A stretch of DNA of 64,000 nucleotides, taken from NCBI GenBank assembly GCA_020137815.1, contig CM035360.1, positions 3,968,001 to 4,032,000 on the forward strand, given 5' to 3'. The notes under the pieces are model-generated. The model made no database searches and had not been told where the DNA came from. It saw only the letters and a program-made list of their open reading frames with translations. This DNA comes from Hormiphora californensis. Lineage: Eukaryota > Animalia > Ctenophora. This document shows positions 4,922-48,069 of this stretch, one piece after another; within the stretch, counting starts at the first letter, position 1, and each line of letters starts with the position of its first letter. The translations under genes and the position numbers were made by a program.

Positions 4922-10791
<5,870 letters not shown>

Positions 10792-15643: not shown

Positions 15644-15944
15644 CTGTAGCTAGGATTCTTCAAAGTTTAAGATGGAGAGCGGTAAAAAAGGAGTATGGTG
15701 TGTGTGTATATATGTCTTGCTCAAGTGAATTTTATGTCAGGTGAAAATTGCGATAATTTACAGCTTATGAGACAAAATGACACATTGCTCAGTTTATGAT
15801 ACAATGAAATAGTGTTTATTTAGGACTGTAGACGACTCGGAGATTTATTTCAGGAAAGATAATACGGGACGGTTTCGACGTTTAACGTCATCATCAGCTC
15901 AAATTAATTTGTTTAAAGTAGTGTTGAAAAGTTTGAAACTTTTC

Positions 15945-15987
15945 AGTTTCAAACTTTTCAACACTACTTTAAACAAATTAATTTGAG
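15945..15987 (+). other. retro-copied spliced-leader exon (ctenophore SL-like); inverted copy at 15898-15940
   Basis: AGTTTCAAACTTTTCAACACTACTTTAAACAAATTAATTTGAG matches, from memory, the Pleurobrachia-type ctenophore SL. It ends in TTTGAG like many SL exons. It is not followed by GT or an Sm site, so it is not an SL RNA gene. Confidence 0.8.
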
Positions 15988-16030
15988 CTGATGATGACGT
16001 TAAACGTCGAAACCGTCCCGTATTATCTTT
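15988..16030 (+). ncRNA. type I hammerhead ribozyme core lacking the native 5' strand of stem I
   Basis: CTGATGA (15988-15994), stem II GACG-TTAAA-CGTC, GAAA (16009-16012), short stem III C..G, putative GUA cleavage triplet at 16020-16022. Confidence 0.65.
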
Positions 16031-16183
16031 CCTGAAATAAATCTCCGAGTCGTCTACAGTCCTAAATAAACACTATTTCATTGTATCAAAACTATGCGAC
16101 TCAAAAACAGCCGATTGGTCAACTTATTGATGCTCAGTTTATGACATGAGACATATAGCTCAGCTCGCTATATAAAGTATTGG

Positions 16184-16250
16184 CTGTCATGCCAATGCTC
16201 TGACCACAGTTCTCGCACGCTCCGATAGGGTCAGGCCAATGCTCTGACAG
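16184..16250 (-). mobile_element. 67-bp micro-MITE, family A
   Basis: Perfect 8-bp TSD AGTATTGG (16176-16183 / 16251-16258). Confidence 0.85.
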
Positions 16251-17516
16251 AGTATTGGTTAAAGCGTTTATACTGGTGACGGAGTGCGAAGGAAATGATC
16301 CCCAAGTACAATACAGGTTTAAGTGCGAGTTCGATGACTGCAGGTGGTGCCAACAAATTTGGATTTAAAGAGGTTGTTATAATCATCAGTGGTAGTGTCA
16401 AAGTGGTAGTGTCAAAGTGGTAGTGTCAAGGGATCGTGCTGGATGACACATTATCGCTGCAAAAGGCCTCTACAGCTGCTCTACTACTAATTTGGCTAAA
16501 AGCCAATATGTTCTTGTATCAACACAATTATGAGTTAGTTCAATTGTGGTCACTGGGCATGAATATTGGATGGAAATATTTACTTTGTTGTTCAAACTTA
16601 GGGAGAGATTGGTAATGAAACTACCGGCTCTCAGCGCGAGATGACCAGTGTAAATTTAGTAAGGAGAGAGAGGATCGAGCAAGGCAAGGAAATATTAGGA
16701 ATAAAGAATTCTTGGGAATTCTTTCTAGGGAAATAATCACCCTTTTTGTTCTCCCCACGCCCCAGACGTAGTTGGTTAAAACAAAATGGCCAAATATGAA
16801 CTAAATATTGAATGGCAAAGTTACCCTGTCAGAGCATTGTCCTCAGTGAAATTTCAATACACACTTGACAGATTCAACGAAGGGATTATTGAATGCACCA
16901 ATGAGCATTGGGCAATCTATTCCCCATCTCATTTATTTAATGGTGGGCAGAAAATTAAGATAAAAAGTTGATTTAGCCTTATCGGACTAATACGTTGGTA
17001 GAGCCCTGTCAAGATTTGCTAGGCCCGCCCACTGTGTGAGAGCTGTCACGCTGTGTAACCTATAATTCATATATCTTGGCCAATGCTCTGACCAGTGACC
17101 ACAGTACTCGTGCGCTCCTTATTTGAAGAAATAAGAATGGGGACAGGCCTTAATTTTTAACAAGAATTATTGCATTATGTATTCATAATGCTGTGTTTCC
17201 CTGCCCTACCGTTTCACATGTCAGTGACATTGTCACTGCCAACAGGATCAAGGCTTGGTCATAATGTAATGTGAGATGCATACGATCTAGCTGTCAGTAT
17301 ACTTCTCACATAGCTTAGAGTTAGCTAACTCCCAATCACATGACACTTGCTAACCAGCTTTTGACATTCCAACTTAACTACTTATCTAACATCTCACACT
17401 CGACTCCCAAGATGAAAATGTGTATGTAACGCGCGGCAGAGCATTTCATGTTTTGTTGAGTGGCGCGCGCACACACGTCCATCAAACTGTGTCAATGAGG
17501 TGTTTGATGAAGGAGT

Positions 17517-20023: not shown

Positions 20024-20656
20024 TATAAATAATTACCTATTAGCTGTGTAAAGCCTGCGGAACGCAGCTGAACCTAAATTGTTGGCTCAGTTTCGTCTCT
20101 TATCACCTGTGTTACACGCCTATGATGATGATTGTTCCTTGTCTAATTATATCGTAGAAGATAATGTACTCCCGTGGGGCGTGGGGCTTTAATAGCTCTC
20201 ACCGCGGCATGCGTTTGACTCATTAACTTGATATACACGTATAATATGTGTACCTACTCTCCCTACAATTTGTAGGGCGAGTAGGTACACATATTATAGT
20301 TAGTTAGTAGTACAAATGTAATACAATCTGCATAATTCTGTCTAAACCCTCGTTTAATATGTTGAGTTGTACAGCTGGTGTACATTACACCCGTCACCCG
20401 GGCCTTTGTTAGCGTTATGTTGGGATCTGTGACACAGCTCTAACTGTTACACTTGGCTCTATTCAGAATATAGTCTATTCTTTTTGTCTATTCTTTTTGT
20501 CTATTCTTTTGTGATTGCGTTTTTAAAGTTTAAACAGTCATTTGTACACATAACATTCCATTGACCATTTCGAACATTACTCTAACCAAACTTCCCCTAT
20601 TTTTATCTGTTGAGCATTACTCTAACCAAACTCCCCCTATTTTAGCTGTTGACACC

Positions 20657-21802
20657 ATGTCTGACGATGAACATGAGCACCTCCGGTGCCCAATCTGTCT
20701 GGAGATCTGCGAGGATGCGGTTGCTACCACGTGCTGTCATCAGCTCTTCTGTGTCACGTGCTCCGAAAACCTGTCCAACTGCCCGACCTGCCGGAAGTCA
20801 CCCTTTCAAGCAACCCCGAACATAGCGATACGCCGGCTGATTGGTGCCATGAAAACTTCCTGTGAGTGGTGTGGCGTGGAGAAGATATGCCGAGCTGATA
20901 TGAAAAATCATCTTGAGAAGTATTGCCCGGCAAATAAAGTCAAATGTAAAGACTGCGGGCTGACTGAAATAGCAAAGTCAGAACTACCGGAGCACAAGAG
21001 GGACTCGTGTCTGGGGAGGCTCGTTGATTGTACCCAGTGCCAAGACAAGGTCAAAGTCTTAGAACTCCTCGAGCACAAGGCCAAATCGTGCCCTCGGAGG
21101 ACGGTGACGTGCGAGCTGTGCGAGATGTCGGTAGTCTGCGAGGTCTTACTGGATCACAAGTACAAAAAGTGTTCCAAGCGGCAGGTTTCGTGTCCCGTAG
21201 CGGGTTGTGATATGGAACTAGGGATACCGTTCCTCAGTCTCCACTTGGAGGACATACACGGCCCAGTTGAGGAAATATTCCAAAAACTCAGCGCCAGTAC
21301 ACCTCCCCCACCTGATCCCCCTGCACGTCAAGCAGCTCCTGAGTTCATAGACCCCATCGAATCTAAGCAGAACCGAAATGGGAATCACGCCCGACTTGGT
21401 AGCACTGGAAAGTTCTACTGCGGATCTCGGCTGGGCTTCTCCTGTGGCTGCTGCAACGGCTTCTGTGGGCCTACTAATGGTTGTAACTGTGTGGCGTGTT
21501 ATGAGCTGGACCTGAAAACCCGGCGGTTACCCCCGGGATACTACGTCAACAAGTTGGGCGCGGTGTGTCGGAAAGGGACTATTGTCCAGTCTAAAGTGTA
21601 CTGTGGACGTAAGGTGATGCAGGTGACCCGGAGGTGTGATGGTTGGTGTGGCGATGACAATGGACCGGAGTGTGAGGAGTGTGCCCTCTTGTTCCTTCAA
21701 ATTCAGACTTGTTATCGGGAGTTTTGCTCCAGTGAAGACTGGGAGGAGTGGGCTGGAATGCGGGATAGAGGCCGTAATGTCAATAATTGTAGACATCAGT
21801 AG
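20657..21802 (+). CDS. intronless RING-HC + TRAF-type zinc-finger protein with a duplicated Cys-rich C-terminal domain (probable E3 ligase), 381 aa
   Basis: ATG at 20657 (accATG). RING CPIC..C.H.FC..C..CPTC, four to five CxxC..H..C TRAF-like fingers, a Pro-rich linker, then two YCG-xn-C[ND]GxCGxxNGxxCxxC repeats. No MATH domain. Branch point, pyrimidine tract and AG acceptor lie just upstream. Confidence 0.9.
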   Translation: MSDDEHEHLRCPICLEICEDAVATTCCHQLFCVTCSENLSNCPTCRKSPFQATPNIAIRRLIGAMKTSCEWCGVEKICRADMKNHLEKYCPANKVKCKDCGLTEIAKSELPEHKRDSCLGRLVDCTQCQDKVKVLELLEHKAKSCPRRTVTCELCEMSVVCEVLLDHKYKKCSKRQVSCPVAGCDMELGIPFLSLHLEDIHGPVEEIFQKLSASTPPPPDPPARQAAPEFIDPIESKQNRNGNHARLGSTGKFYCGSRLGFSCGCCNGFCGPTNGCNCVACYELDLKTRRLPPGYYVNKLGAVCRKGTIVQSKVYCGRKVMQVTRRCDGWCGDDNGPECEECALLFLQIQTCYREFCSSEDWEEWAGMRDRGRNVNNCRHQ

Positions 21803-22809
21803 AACGTAGACAGGGGAGAAACTGACGTGAAGTGTGAATTATTGTAGTGATCTCTGAGGTTTGGGGACTGAAACAGGTCATTTTTTGAGATGATTATGGG
21901 AGCTTTATAGTATTTTTTAAAAGTGTGAGCGAGGGAGAACATGGGACTAGCTCTTAATAAATTTTATAAATAGTAGCAAGTTTTGATGATTTGCTTTTAT
22001 TTTGTGTTTCTAAACGCTTTTTTCAAGAACTGAGCACTATAATACTTAGTATAATAACACCAAACGCACTTCCACAAGGCACTTCGACAAACTAAAATAG
22101 CTCTTTGAAAGCTCATCAAATCAACAAAACTTCCCTGTACCAAGCAGCAAGTACAGCTATATCGCTGTTGAAATGATTTAAGAACACGGAGCATCCCAGA
22201 CCGCACGTTGCTTGAGAGTGGAACAGTACGAAGGAGCTGGCGATCAGAGGGCATAGAGGGGGACGGGGTATAACAGAGAGAGAGAGAGAGGAGAGAGGGT
22301 GGTTGGAGCAGAGGCTAGAGAGAGGTTGTATAGAAGGGATCAGAGGGCATAGAGGGATGGGGTATAACAGAGATTATGGTGGCGGGGGTCGGTTGGAGCA
22401 TCGAGAGAGAGAAGAGATTATATGTAGAACGCTGCGGCTGGCTGAATATCAACTGGATCGAACAATGGAAAGCTATATACTTCAACTCCGAGAGTAGCAA
22501 TCTGCTCACGTATTATTCTGATCTGAACTTAGTTTAACACATGTCTTTTCAGAAGCTGTCTCGTGCCAATATAAGAAGTATCATGAACAGGACAAGGTTA
22601 AACAATCCATTTCTTGGTAGGCTTCCAGGGATAGTTGCAACAATGCTAAACGGAAGTTAGAATTAGAAGCTAGTCAACAGCTCTGTCAGAGCATTGACCT
22701 GACAGCTATTAGCTAATGTTGGATATAAAATGAGTAAACAAAGATAGAGTAGGGTCTACCGCTGCAAATTATAATGATAGGGGTTTAAGTGAAAACAGAA
22801 ATCGCAAAT

Positions 22810-23000
22810 GAAAACAAGTGGTTTTATCAGACAATTGTTTCGATCCATCTGGATCTCATCAGTATTCAGTAATTCCACTGATGAGATCCATCTGGATTCT
22901 GGATCGAAACAATTGTCTGGTAAAACCGCTTGTTTTCATTTGTTTTCTGCTCTCGGTCCTGGATCGATTGAGCTCTCTCGTGTGAATCGACTACTCACAT
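22810..23000 (+). mobile_element. second Penelope-like palindromic insertion with hammerhead ribozymes
   Basis: Inverted arms at about 22805-22863 / 22877-22942, then an approximately 55-bp tail. Flanking 20-bp near-identical direct repeats TGAAAACAGAAATYGYAAAT (22790-22809 / 23001-23020). Confidence 0.8.
22875..22920 (+). ncRNA. minimal type I hammerhead ribozyme
   Basis: Stem I CCA/TGG, CTGATGA, stem II GATCCA/TGGATC, GAAA, palindromic stem III C-AATT-G, and GUC cleavage site at 22915-22917. Inverted copy on the minus strand at about 22828-22863. Confidence 0.85.
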
Positions 23001-38242: not shown

Positions 38243-39802
38243 CAAGGTGGCCCATAAATTATGATAGCGGGGGACGAGCTGTACCTCCCAAACGGTGATA
38301 GTTGTGTAAAAACAAACTACGGGAACATGCTGGAACAATTCCTGGACGGCTTTTTGCAAATTATGAAATTTTTATTCAAAAGTTCATTTTTCATTCATGA
38401 ACTTTCTTCACGTTCATTAATGAACTAAGGACTCTAATTTACCGAGAGTGCGGCATTTTGTTTGGGTTGAATTTATCTTTCCAATGAGCACCATAAAAAT
38501 CAAATTGAAGCACCAGGTCACATGGCAGTTGAGAAAATGCACATGCATGATTTTGGCTGTTCCTGCGACTGTCGAGCGGCTGTATCCATGATACCATTTT
38601 GTTCAATCTTTTTGAAACTTTGGGTGAACATTAGCTTTGATAAGATCTTTGTTCACAAGAAAAATCAAGGTCAAAACTCAAAGTTCATTTTTAAGTGTTG
38701 GCAGTTCATTCCACTCATTCAAGAACCAACATCCCCAAAGTGATGAAAAGTGATGGTTTTTGTTTGGCCCATACCCTGCATCGATAGAGATGTGTAAAAA
38801 TACGTTTCCGGGCTAGTTAGTGGGTGTCCATGTGATCATGATGATATCTGACACCTTTTCTGAGCCATAATTAAGGTATTTTCTCAAATTCAAGCATGTG
38901 ATTTGAGTTTTGCGATTGGTATCGTGCCACAATGTTGAAAGATCTCATAGCACCTCAAAAATGATGATTAGTTCAATGACAGGAGTTGATTTATGATAGA
39001 AAAGATTTAAACAGACGTCAAAATGAACTAAAAGATAATTTAAGATCATAAATCAACTCATTTCGTTGAACTAATCATCATGTTTGAGGTGCTATGAGAT
39101 CTCTTAACTTTGCTGCACGATACCAATCGCAGAAAACTCAAATCACATGCTTGAATTTGAGAAAATCCCTTAATTATGGCTCAGAAAAGGTGTCAGATAT
39201 CATCATGATCACATGGACACCCACTAACTAGCCCGGAAACATATTTTCACACCTCTCTATCATTGCAGGGTATGGGCCAAACAATAACTATCACTTTTCA
39301 TCACTTTAGGGATGTTGGTTCCTGAATGAGTGGAATGAACTGCCAACACTTAAAAATGAACTTTGAGTTTTGACCTTGATTTTTCTTGTGAACAAAGATC
39401 TTATCAAAGCTAATGTTCACCCAAAGTTTCAAAAAGATTGAACAAAATGGTATCATGGATACAGCCGCTCGACAGTCGCAGGAACAGCCAAAATCATGCA
39501 TGTGCATTTTCTCAACTGCCATGTGACCTGGTGCTTCAATTTGATTTTTATGGTGCTCATTGGAAAGATAAATTCAACCCAAACAAAATGCCGCACTCTC
39601 GGTAAATTAGAGTCCTTAGTTCATTAATGAACGTGAAGAAAGTTCATGAATGAAAAATGAACTTTTGAATAAAATTTTCATAATTTGCAAAAAGCCGTCC
39701 AGGAATTGTTCCAGCATGTTCCCGTAGTTTGTTTTTACACAACTATCACCGTTTGGGAGACACAGCTCGTCCCCCGCTATCATAATTTATGGGCCACCTA
39801 CA
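38243..39802. mobile_element. Tc1/mariner-like foldback element nested in the MULE
   Basis: Near-perfect inverted arms of about 750 bp starting AGGTGGCCCATAAATTATG, with TA flanks. Explains the mirrored ORFs 38522..38743 and 39301..39522. Confidence 0.85.
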
Positions 39803-42876: not shown

Positions 42877-42949
42877 GGTTCGGTAGCTCAGTGGTAGAGC
42901 ATCGAGCGCGTCTCTCTGGAGGTCCCTGGTTCAATTCCCGGTCGAACCC
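42877..42949 (+). tRNA. tRNA-like pseudogene / SINE-type head (copy 1)
   Basis: 73 nt. Acceptor GGTTCGG/TCGAACC, A box TAGCTCAGTGG, B box GGTTCAATTCC, T5 terminator just downstream. The anticodon arm is irregular (loop CGCGTCT, no U33) and the T-stem has a mismatch. Confidence 0.7.
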
Positions 42950-43196: not shown

Positions 43197-43269
43197 GGTT
43201 CGGTAGCTCAGTGGTAGAGCATCGAGCGCGTCTCTCTGGAGGTCCCTGGTTCAATTCCCGGTCGAACCC
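43197..43269 (+). tRNA. tRNA-like pseudogene / SINE-type head (copy 2)
   Basis: Identical to copy 1, 320 bp downstream. Confidence 0.7.
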
Positions 43270-44495: not shown

Positions 44496-47400
44496 CCCTA
44501 GTCAGAATATAATACGTATTATTTTCAACAATACGTATTAAATACGCGCGCAAATATGTATTTAATACGTATTAAATACGTATTATAAGCCGAAAATACA
44601 GAAAAGCCGCGCATTTAGCAAGTGCTACCATCGCGAGCCGCACAACTTCCGACCCAATTTTAGGTCAAAAGCGCGTTACAGATACTACCTACAGCCTCAC
44701 CCTGCCACATGTCCCAATACAGCTCTGCCGCGAAGTGCTAGTACTGTGTTCCTTCGTCTTCTAAAACAGATCCCTGTCCCAATACAGCTCTGCCTGCCAC
44801 GAATTGCTACTGTGTTCCCCCGCCTTCTAAAACAGGTCCATGTCCCAGTACAGCTCTGCCACGAATTGCTACTGTGTTCCCCCGCCTTCTAAAACAGGCC
44901 CCTGTCCCAGTACAGCTCTGCCACGAATTGCTACTGTCTTCCCCCGCCTTCTAAAACAGGTCCCTGTCCCAGTACAGCTCTGCCACGAATTGCTACTGTG
45001 TTCCCCCACCTTCTAAAACAGGTCCCTGTCCCAATACAGCTCTGCCACGAATTGCTACTGTCTTCCCCGCCTTCTAAAACAGGTCCCTGTTTTAGAAGAC
45101 GGAGGAAGACAGTAGCAATTCGTGGCAGAGCTGTATTGGGACAGGGACCTGTTTTAGAAGACGGAGGAACACAGTAGCAATTCGTGGCAGAGCTGTAGTG
45201 GGACAGGGATCTGTTTTAGAAGGCGGGGAAGACAGTAGCACTTCGTGGCAGAGCTGTAGTGGGACAGGGACCTGTTTTAGAAGACGGAGGAAGACAGTAG
45301 CAATTCGTGGCAGAGCTGTATTGGAACAGGGACCTGTTTTAGATGGCGGGGGAAGACAGTAGCAATTCGTGGCAGAGCTGTATTGGGACAGGGAGCTGTT
45401 TTAGAAGGCGGGGGAAGACAGTAGCAATTCGTGGCAGAGCTGTAGTGGGACAGGGACCTGTTTTAAAGGTCAAAAGCGCGTTACAGATACTACCTACAGC
45501 CTCACCCTGCCACATGTCCCAATACAGCTCTGCCGCGAAGTGCTAGTACTGTGTTCCTTCGTCTTCTAAAACAGATCCCTGTCCCAATACAGCTCTGCCT
45601 GCCACGAATTGCTACTGTGTTCCCCCGCCTTCTAAAACAGGTCCCTGTCCCAGTACAGCTCTGCCACGAATTGCTACTGTGTTCCCCCGCCTTCTAAAAC
45701 AGGCCCCTGTCCCAGTACAGCTCTGCCACGAATTGCTACTGTCTTCCCCCGCCTTCTAAAACAGGTCCCTGTCCCAGTACAGCTCTGCCACGAATTGCTA
45801 CTGTGTTCCCCCACCTTCTAAAACAGGTCCCTGTCCCAATACAGCTCTGCCACGAATTGCTACTGTCTTCCCCCGCCTTCTAAAACAGGTCCCTGTCCCA
45901 ATACAGCTCTGCCACGAATTGCTACTGTGTTCCTCCGTCTTCTAAAACAGGTCCCTGTCCCAGTACAGCTCTGCCACGAATTGCTACTGTCTTCCCCGCC
46001 TTCTAAAACAGGTCCCTGTCCCAATACAGCTCTGCCACGAATTGCTACTGTCTTCCCCGCCTTCTAAAACAGGTCCCTGTTTTAGAAGACGGAGGAAGAC
46101 AGTAGCAATTCGTGGCAGAGCTGTATTGGGACAGGGACCTGTTTTAGAAGACGGAGGAACACAGTAGCAATTCGTGGCAGAGCTGAATTGGGACAGGGAC
46201 CTGTTTTAGAAGGAGGGGAAGACAGTAGCAATTCGTGGCAGTGCTGTAGTGGGACAGGGACCTATTTTAGAAGGCGGGGTAAGACAGTAGCAATTCGTGG
46301 CAGAGCTGTAGTGGGACAGGGATCTGTTTTAGAAGGCGGGGAAGACAGTAGCAATTCGTGGCAGAGCTGTAGTGGGACAGGGACCTGTTTTAGAAGACGG
46401 AGGAAGACAGTAGCAATTCGTGGCAGAGCTGTATTGGAACAGGGACCTGTTTTAGATGGCGGGGGAAGACAGTAGCAATTCGTGGCAGAGCTGTATTGGG
46501 ACAGGGAGCTGTTTTAGAAGGCGGGGGAAGACAGTAGCAATTCGTGGCAGAGCTGTAGTGGGACAGGGACCTGTTTTAGAAGGCGGGGGAAGACAGTAGC
46601 AATTCGTGGCAGAGCTGTATTGGGACAGGGACCTGTTTTAGAAGGCGGAGGAACACAGTAGCAATTCGCGGCAGAGTTGTACTGGGACAGGGACCTGTTT
46701 TAGAAGACGGAGGAAGACAGTAGCAATTCGTGGCAGAGCTGTATTGGGACAGGGACCTGTTTTAGAAGGCGGAGGAACACAGTAGCAATTCGCGGCAGAG
46801 CTGTACTGGGACAGGGACCTGTTTTAGAAGACGGAGGAAGACAGTAGCAATTCGTGGCAGAGCTGTATTGGGACAGGGACCTGTTTTAGAAGACGGAGGA
46901 ACACAGTAGCAATTCGTGGCAGAGCTGAATTGGGACAGGGACCTGTTTTAGAAGGAGGGGAAGACAGTAGCAATTCGTGGCAGAGCTGTACTGGGACAGG
47001 GACCTGTTTTAGAAGACGGAGGAACACAGTAGCAATTCGTGGCAGAGCTGTATTGGGACAGGGACCTGTTTTAGAAGGCGGAGGAACACAGTAGCAATTC
47101 GCGGCAGAGCTGTACTGGGACAGGGACCTGTTTTAGAAGACGGAGGAAGACAGTAGCAATTCGTGGCAGAGCTGTATTGGGACAGGGACCTGTTTTAGAA
47201 GACGGAGGAACACAGTAGCAATTCGTGGCAGTGCTGTAGTGGGACAGGGACCTATTTTAGAAGGCGGGGTAAGACAGTAGCAATTCGTGGCAGAGCTGTA
47301 GTGGGACAGGGATCTGTTTTAGAAGGCGGGGAAGACAGTAGCAATTCGTGGCAGAGCTGTAGTGGGACAGGGACCTGTTTTAGAAGACGGAGGAAGACAG

Positions 47401-48069
47401 TAGCAATTCGTGGCAGAGCTGTATTGGAACAGGGACCTGTTTTAGATGGCGGGGGAAGACAGTAGCAATTCGTGGCAGAGCTGTATTGGGACAGGGAGCT
47501 GTTTTAGAAGGCGGGGGAAGACAGTAGCAATTCGTGGCAGAGCTGTAGTGGGACAGGGACCTGTTTTAGAAGGCGGGGGAAGACAGTAGCAATTCGTGGC
47601 AGAGCTGTATTGGGACAGGGACCTGTTTTAGAAGGCGGAGGAACACAGTAGCAATTCGTGGCAGAGCTGTACTGGGACAGGGACCTGTTTTAGAAGACGG
47701 AGGAAGACAGTAGCAATTCGTGGCAGAGCTGTATTGGGACAGGGACCTGTTTTAGAAGACGGAGGAACACAGTAGCAATTCGTGGCAGAGCTGAATTGGG
47801 ACAGGGACCTGTTTTAGAAGGAGGGGAAGACAGTAGCAATTCGTGGCAGAGCTGTACTGGGACAGGGACCTGTTTTAGAAGACGGAGGAACACAGTAGCA
47901 ATTCGTGGCAGAGCTGTAGTGGGACAGGGACCTGTTTTAGAAGACGGAGGAAGACAGTAGCAATTCGTGGCAGAGCTGTAGTGGAACAGGGACCTGTTTT
48001 AGAAGACGGAGGAACACAGTAGCAATTCGTGGCAGAGCTGAATTGGGACAGGGACCTGTTTTAGATTCT

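Follow-up and report, generated by a model that had tools for sequence, protein, structure and literature searches.

A splice site that falls on a hammerhead ribozyme has been described for Penelope of D. virilis, where, according to the accessible part of Cervera and De la Pena (2014, PMC4209133), the intron ends at the 5′ end of helix I, with the result that the ribozyme differs between spliced and unspliced RNA. For insertions of Penelope-like elements (PLEs), the accessible text of PMC3846280 describes a pLTR with a tail covering the start of the ORF, an inverted pLTR and duplications of 8-10 bp, and that of PMC8557442 gives an inverted 5′ copy and a one-sided tail of 30-40 bp as typical of PLEs. 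Self-priming on an antisense template was argued for the head-to-head forms in the accessible part of PMC3846280, where the question was left open. In PMC11167929 the tail is the stretch between two internal start sites of reverse transcription near the ORF start, with uncut RNA as the main template in vitro; for the anole element, cleavage was found to need protein, to be dispensable for insertion in vitro and to go unseen in RNA-seq. Genomic spliced leader (SL) exons fused to mobile elements have been reported from flatworms and put down to trans-spliced element RNA (PMC5832876 and PMC12582326, accessible parts), and in ctenophore genomes 718 SL copies have been counted (PMC8527503, accessible part).

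The window (i.e. the whole stretch of 64,000 nucleotides of Hormiphora californensis DNA that was analysed) holds an insertion that can be set against each of these systems. As in D. virilis Penelope, there is a minimal type I hammerhead in a pLTR, with an extra base between 9 and 10.1, a short helix I and an acceptor at helix I, whereas, as far as the accessible text of PMC4209133 goes, it is unlike Penelope in that the acceptor here appears to take the host SL in trans, the junction lies exactly at C3 and the loop of helix III is non-palindromic. In addition, Penelope is known, in the accessible literature, for keeping its intron, whereas here it is the spliced form that fills many genomic copies. 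With EN+ PLE insertions the locus shares the head-to-head arms, a tail with the ORF start on one arm, end points about 43 nt apart and the copying of uncut RNA (PMC11167929, and the accessible parts of PMC3846280 and PMC8557442), and its flanking direct repeat is a candidate for their short target-site duplication; it differs from them in the complete SL at the end of both arms, by which the template can be recognised as sense, spliced RNA. The flatworm SL copies, by contrast, mostly involve LTR and LINE elements and partial leaders, and the accessible text on them contains no tie to a PLE or a ribozyme and no acceptor shown in an unspliced parent. Non-LTR retrozymes are likewise short, non-coding derivatives of PLE pLTRs with a type I hammerhead (bioRxiv 10.64898/2026.07.22.740005, accessible part), but they are described there as tandems of complete ribozymes, in contrast to the inverted pair seen here, in which the 5′ arm of the ribozyme is replaced by the SL.

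A literature search (covering titles and the starts of abstracts, with subscription journals thinly covered and supplements that may bear on the matter) returned no description of an SL joined to a PLE hammerhead or of such a ctenophore family, and the term 'spliced leader' had 0 occurrences in the PLE-hammerhead papers that were text-searched. The overlap of splice site and ribozyme is already in print; what is new is its trans-spliced version, together with the SL as a tag for the sense, spliced template of a head-to-head insertion.

Layout and recurrence of the insertion

Contigs of public sequencing runs were aligned to the window, i.e. DNA runs X1 and X5 (organism A), X9 (organism B) and X13 (a second study of organism B, with a shorter stretch), as well as RNA run X15; RNA runs X17-X20 (shares below 0.1) were left out. 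A join was counted as bridged when a contig extended over at least 31 letters on each side of it. Metagenome contigs, scanned by pattern, gave 34 loci, comprising one member of the family (L012) and 33 non-members, and viral contigs gave 0 pattern matches and 0 protein loci.

The whole insertion is a 345-bp head-to-head unit with a candidate target-site duplication, in which the junction of SL and hammerhead core occurs twice, once per arm of the inverted pair. Its parts are as follows.

15786..15799, + strand: left copy of a 14-bp direct repeat, identical to 16131-16144; its last 3 bases are common with the left arm
15797..15940, - strand: left arm, an inverted second copy of SL, hammerhead and pLTR end, without the tail; a perfect 144-bp reverse complement of 15945-16088
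15941..15944, no strand: 4-nt spacer at the fold, equal to the bases that a snap-back of the SL 5′ hairpin would add
15945..15987, + strand: exon of the ctenophore spliced leader, with the 5′ end included (SL of PMC8527503, accessible part; ends of X15 RNA contigs)
15986..15987, + strand: AG common to the end of the SL and to the acceptor before splicing; it supplies the 2 pairs of helix I left once the SL is joined
15988..16022, + strand: predicted minimal type I hammerhead core of PLE type, with the predicted cut after 16022 (consensus in the accessible part of PMC4209133)
16023..16026, + strand: helix I 3′ strand, TTAT, partner of RTAG in the unspliced acceptor (L012 and loose ends of organism B)
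16027..16088, + strand: remaining pLTR-derived segment, to the inner 3′ end point (the L012 match runs to 16085 and then diverges; the left arm stops at the mirror of 16088)
16089..16131, + strand: one-sided 43-nt tail to the outer 3′ end point, containing the likely ORF start, an ATG at 16094 (X1 contig exits, depth drop, translation)
16131..16144, + strand: right copy of the direct repeat; its first base is common with the tail end

RNA contigs of X15 leave the reference before 15945 with an adapter-like end, which is presumably sequencing adapter. When the letters are compared by eye, 15945-15987 equal positions 2-44 of the H. californensis SL in the accessible part of PMC8527503, and the base before them (15944) is C in the window versus G in that SL. 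A complete SL exon, the mark of an SL trans-spliced RNA, heads the 5′ end of the joined unit. The original prediction had the coordinates of the junction right, and the terminal AG of the SL (15986-15987) does abut CTGATGA (15988-15994), i.e. the SL meets the hammerhead core at C3. It also held that the 5′ strand of stem I is missing, which is only partly the case, as the AG of the SL retains 2 contiguous pairs (G.U and A-U), and that the 3′ strand is still present after GTA, which it is, as TTATCTTT at 16023-16030 with TTAT at 16023-16026 as the pairing part.

The 14-bp flanking repeat, a length reached by 0 of 1000 random flank pairs, is a candidate target-site duplication judging from the letters at the two ends. 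There are two 3′ end points, an outer one at 16131 and an inner one at about 16085-16088, the latter common to the left arm and L012.

Copies joined in the same way recur in independent data. The join of SL and core is bridged in 7 of the 24 DNA records listed, which cover three of three DNA runs and two organisms, and since it is also present in X13 it occurs in the DNA runs of four studies (X1, X5, X9 and X13). The summed depth over 16001-16132, an indicator of repetition and no measure of copy number, amounts to about 7,800-165,000 in three DNA runs, against 28-70 in the flank bin (X1, X5). At 16133-16168 the depth is 0 in the three DNA runs, the window's own flank junction is uncovered in all four runs aligned over this stretch, and 23 X1 contigs exit the reference behind 16131. 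The SL-joined unit is a repeat with its outer end at 16131. Three further copies carry joints between opposite strands within the SL, and the fold at this place is thus recurrent too. A chance origin of the junction was considered and is ruled out by its recurrence in other copies and by the break in identity with L012 at the AG. Apart from this, 12 contigs of X1 exit at the SL end, at 15988, with a mixed consensus (agreement 0.53) that still starts with CTGATGA, and the SL may be joined at this position to further subfamilies of hammerheads.

Parent element and splice acceptor

The original prediction did not name the element concerned, which carries the pLTR and ORF start of a Penelope-like retrotransposon. 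In L012, a 3′ copy without the tail, the sequence 5′ of the acceptor contains the last part of an RT frame (3-587) and, in another phase, a GIY-YIG frame (529-1092), i.e. the pLTR lies 3′ of an ORF for RT with a C-terminal GIY-YIG, as in EN+ PLEs. The RT part of L012 has 29 longer homologues among 227 candidates, and all five full-length RT plus GIY-YIG proteins (at least 900 aa) match both of its frames with E 1e-81 or better. In Pfam, RVT_1 was above cut-off in one of the six proteins scanned (P0003) and GIY-YIG was found only below cut-off. A Cys motif in the linker resembles that of Neptune/Nematis in the accessible part of PMC8557442.

The window unit itself combines an inverted 5′ copy, placed head to head, with a one-sided 43-nt tail that covers the ORF start (30-40 bp in described EN+ PLEs). 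The five full-length proteins all start with M-R-(L/I)-x-(N/S) and have L at 12, and the 12-codon translation from the ATG at 16094 fits five of these five N-termini, as does only 1 of the 2090 ATGs in the window (by a pattern chosen after seeing the proteins). On this comparison, the ATG at 16094 is likely the start of the element's ORF. Searches with the five full-length proteins (tblastn) gave no PLE ORF in the 64-kb window nor in the other 33 metagenome loci, and among the sequences examined no single molecule links the pLTR to the ORF start. Tandem units with complete hammerheads, as in retrozymes, are found neither in the window nor in L012, the window having an inverted pair instead. 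The unit is likely a truncated copy of an EN+ Penelope-like element that comprises pLTR and ORF start.

An unspliced counterpart of the junction is present in relatives of the unit. L012 and the window are identical at 93 of 100 positions for 15986-16085, versus 15 of 41 before 15986, and in L012 the sequence upstream of CTGATGA resembles a 3′ splice site, in which TAG (...TTTGTAG) is preceded by a U-rich tract and by a CTAAC branch-like motif, the A of which lies 22 nt ahead of the junction. In organism B, pyrimidine-rich loose ends before 15986 end in TTTAT, giving TTTATAG (at least 6 X9 contigs, agreement 0.81, and at least 1 in X13). For organism A, there was no unspliced loose end among the rows listed for X1 or X5, the only hint of a second upstream path being X5 contigs that begin exactly at 15986. 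In the unspliced form, RTAG pairs with TTAT, so that helix I has 4 bp. The TAG acceptor that had been predicted directly before CTGATGA is therefore found in L012 (TTTGTAG) and in organism B (TTTATAG), and in both it doubles as the 5′ strand of helix I. Of the predicted parent sequence, AAGATAG, the TAG is borne out, but the 7-bp strand is absent, with pairing that stops after 4 bp and the U-rich tract further up; likewise, unspliced copies do end in AG before the core, as had been proposed for checking, but their pairing with TTATCTT is limited to TTAT.

The pattern scan also returned hammerhead-like loci outside the family. Five of them (L001, L008, L011, L014 and L032) are unrelated and AT-rich, with a pyrimidine-rich tract and YAG 1-7 bases before CUGA, and YAG lies within 7 bases of CUGA in 8 of 25 distinct metagenome loci (a count without a control, from loci where no PLE ORF was found); an acceptor beside the core may be common in hammerhead-like motifs. 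Ten others (L004, L018, L019, L021, L024, L027, L029, L030, L031 and L034) have a common hammerhead-core-like motif just upstream of an ATG, with no GUH after GAAAC and a contig GC of about 0.5, and this motif is possibly another ribozyme topology or a leader RNA.

Predicted hammerhead and RNA evidence

The 5′ half of the core consists of CTGATGA (15988-15994), U9a (15995), helix II (15996-15999 with 16005-16008) and GAA-AC (16009-16013), and the 3′ half of a loop (16014-16019) and GTA (16020-16022), followed by the strand at 16023-16030. Helix II has 4-5 bp and helix III has 2 bp with a non-palindromic 6-nt loop. The consensus elements CUGANGA, GAAA and GUH, the extra base 9/10.1 and the pair G10.1-C11.1 are all present, and across copies the core nucleotides are all kept, with variation in loop II (position 16003). 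Rfam Hammerhead_1 (RF00163) gave no match at 15988-16022, neither at the gathering score nor at E up to 10, and the hammerhead call is made on the core consensus in the accessible part of PMC4209133. The other Rfam hits in the window were set aside: at the gathering score these are tRNAs only, and the miRNA-hairpin matches at E up to 10 are a meaningless effect of the palindrome.

Helix I has 4 bp in the unspliced relatives versus 2 bp in the SL-fused copy of the window. In a nearest-neighbour model, which leaves out tertiary contacts and protein, the probability of helix I is 0.000 in the unspliced and the spliced form alike, and forcing the hammerhead fold costs 11.2 kcal/mol unspliced versus 11.1 kcal/mol spliced. 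The isolated core has an energy of +1.4 kcal/mol unspliced versus +4.1 kcal/mol spliced, i.e. the unspliced one is 2.7 kcal/mol less unfavourable. By these calculations, neither form folds stably in silico. A dimer is the usual rescue for minimal hammerheads of this kind, but it looks poor for the SL-joined one in the model: the palindromic 15.2-16.2 and loop 3 needed for the dimer fold are absent from the SL-joined core, and the helix III segment forms a self-duplex of just -0.7 kcal/mol, versus -6.6 kcal/mol for a second hammerhead family in the window. The ribozyme is probably already marginal, and protein- or dimer-dependent. The second family lies at 22805-22942, as a head-to-head pair of minimal hammerheads with cores at 22878 (+) and 22862 (-); its helix III is a perfect palindrome and its CUGA is not preceded by AG, it reaches 26 bits in Rfam Hammerhead_1 (E 0.0057, under the cut-off of 34), and it is probably a further truncated insertion of a PLE.

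The join of SL and core is also present in a 50-nt contig of RNA run X15 (depth 8.5), where its flanks measure 22 and 28 letters, i.e. below the 31-letter rule. Because of these short flanks, and because the join exists in DNA, the contig is no proof that trans-splicing is still going on. It shares 30 nt with a 333-nt X15 contig that is uncut through core and tail; the latter runs from 15986 through the tail and on for 187 letters beyond 16131, and this far part could be the full ORF start or genomic flank. A further contig (X15 record 10; 213 nt, depth 2.2) is unspliced and intact across the cut site and covers window positions 15987-16085. Compared with L012 in the core region, ten out of ten listed differences are A to G (13 of its 15 differences from the window being listed), and by eye the same is true of five out of five differences from L012 in the 30 printed upstream letters. 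The A-to-G sites include the A of the acceptor and A17. It is possible that this contig, a single one of depth 2.2 without matched DNA, reflects A-to-I (ADAR) hyper-editing of sense RNA. The contig ends listed do not accumulate at 16023, although RNA ends are beyond what contigs can reveal. Ends of contigs close to the predicted cut were also considered as marks of cleavage and rejected: the X16 end at 16019 is adapter-like, the X15 end at 16015 is the 30-nt overlap with the next contig, and the X13 ends (16017 and 16025) were likewise not accepted as such.

Origin of the SL-joined copies and neighbouring features

The best explanation, with a probability of roughly 0.85, is that the mRNA of a PLE received the SL at a 3′ splice site overlapping the 5′ strand of hammerhead helix I, and that the insertion arose by retrotransposition from the 5′ part of this mRNA. 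In a partial tandem of the element, transcription would start in or before the upstream pLTR, and the 5′-UTR acceptor that closes a cis-intron in other PLEs would here be served by SL trans-splicing, yielding a capped mRNA with SL, core, ATG and ORF in that order. The element protein would then prime reverse transcription at two positions inside the RNA, close to where the ORF begins (16131 and about 16088), from which the cap would be reached after 187 or 144 nt, so that short SL-headed copies would pile up; the inverted arm would arise where the cDNA reaches the cap, with the hairpin of the SL as an aid. Because SL addition is confined to sense transcripts, the SL-headed copies came from sense, spliced RNA, and L012 shows that unspliced pLTRs are copied too, as expected for a 3′ copy. 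By shortening helix I from 4 to 2 bp, splicing should weaken a marginal ribozyme, and a regulatory role for this shortening is possible.

Whether the shortening amounts to a switch is a separate matter, which would add to this explanation and not offer another origin. According to this idea, which goes back to the original prediction, unspliced RNA would fold helix I and cleave itself, and trans-splicing would disable the ribozyme and protect the capped mRNA, as rival outcomes for a single site. The same 4 bases serve as acceptor and as the 5′ strand of helix I and cannot at once pair and be read as an acceptor, and the pairing is kept between the two acceptor variants through a one-sided change (A-U to G.U). 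In keeping with a switch, the isolated core is less unfavourable before splicing (+1.4 versus +4.1 kcal/mol), the core nucleotides are all conserved next to a variable loop II (16003), the same overlap exists in D. virilis (PMC4209133, accessible part) and the anole PLE ribozyme cuts on addition of protein (PMC11167929). However, helix I has a probability of 0.000 in both forms with an equal penalty (11.2 versus 11.1 kcal/mol), and the self-pairing of helix III (-0.7 versus -6.6 kcal/mol in the second family) makes dimer rescue look poor. Moreover, the unspliced form likewise runs unbroken through the predicted cleavage position (in L012 and X15 record 10), i.e. both forms are copied uncut, and the contig ends listed, which cannot show RNA ends, do not pile up at 16023. 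In the anole system, insertion is normal with catalytic mutants and the cleavage position is not marked by read ends (PMC11167929), and in D. virilis a helix I of 2 bp still cut weakly with a lengthened helix III (PMC4209133, accessible part), so that 2 bp need not be dead. On balance a switch seems doubtful. A wider version is speculative and rather unlikely as well: one four-base site would decide the fate of PLE RNA in ctenophores, the spliced RNA being capped with a disabled hammerhead and the unspliced RNA self-cleaving with protein, and A-to-I editing would hit the acceptor AG and the cleavage triplet. The SL mRNA would be translated and copied from tail to cap into masses of SL-headed head-to-head insertions, the hairpins of which would in turn feed the editing. 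If true, this would be a switch of host splicing, ribozyme and editing that acts on a retroelement, and the SL would naturally label the polarity of the PLE template.

Other origins are less probable than the retro-copying of currently spliced parents. A single old event of trans-splicing and retro-copying might have given a chimera of SL, hammerhead and tail that was later amplified as a non-autonomous, SINE-like family, in line with the high summed depth over the whole unit, with the same join in two organisms and with copies that retain the tail which the protein would recognise. This is quite unlikely, however, given that a T at 16003 is found in L012, in all 3 X15 contigs covering the position (the joined one included) and in most of the X13 depth, and is rare in X5; such lineage alleles, common to SL-joined and unspliced sequences, fit the repeated splicing of current parents. 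A solo copy ending at 16131 would, furthermore, be without the part of the ORF further downstream on which the anole protein depends in vitro (PMC11167929), and no promoter is evident ahead of the SL. Splicing might also be dispensed with altogether, if the reverse transcriptase changed template at the common AG, passing from the RNA of the element to the SL on a host mRNA of any kind; PLE copies do show jumps and joins at microhomology (PMC3846280, accessible part), AG is common to both sequences, and SL-bearing mRNAs are abundant. A jump is nevertheless highly improbable, as the join falls at one exact base in many copies, the SL ends exactly and relatives have the full acceptor signature upstream, whereas 2 bases of homology would not fix the join in this way. 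As for a fold-back artefact of library or assembly, or contamination of the assembly by cDNA, a perfect 144-bp palindrome at the SL hairpin and a flank junction that is uncovered in the runs are what would be expected, but the 14-bp flanking repeat (0 of 1000 by chance), the one-sided tail and the join in the DNA runs of four studies (X1, X5, X9 and X13) reduce the likelihood of this to almost nothing.

Under the preferred explanation, i.e. retrotransposition of trans-spliced PLE mRNA, an insertion of which both arms end at the first base of the SL is a natural record of the PLE template. This bears on the question raised in PMC3846280 (accessible part) of antisense self-priming versus a sense template, and on why PLEs keep introns, and it agrees, in a living genome, with the model of internal initiation from PMC11167929. 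The natural pair of RNAs with a helix I of 4 bp versus 2 bp is usable to probe the purpose of PLE hammerheads. The results also suggest that some of the hundreds of SL copies in ctenophore genomes are retro-copies and not SL RNA genes.

The surroundings of the insertion are rich in other repeats. Just downstream, 16184-16252 is a short repeat of very high depth with internal direct repeats, and has relatives at about 3270, 5160, 5870, 17080, 22690, 26480 and 28800. Long inverted repeats are present at 38245-38911 with 39133-39799 (667 nt, 98%) and at 6024-6304 with 6891-7171 (281 nt, 95%), and 44662-48065 is an array of 62-bp tandem units with a strand switch near 46050. Two identical tRNA-like copies (42877-42949 and 43197-43269) lie within a 320-bp repeat, and 20534-21802 (+) is an open frame of 422 aa with RING and TRAF-type zinc fingers.
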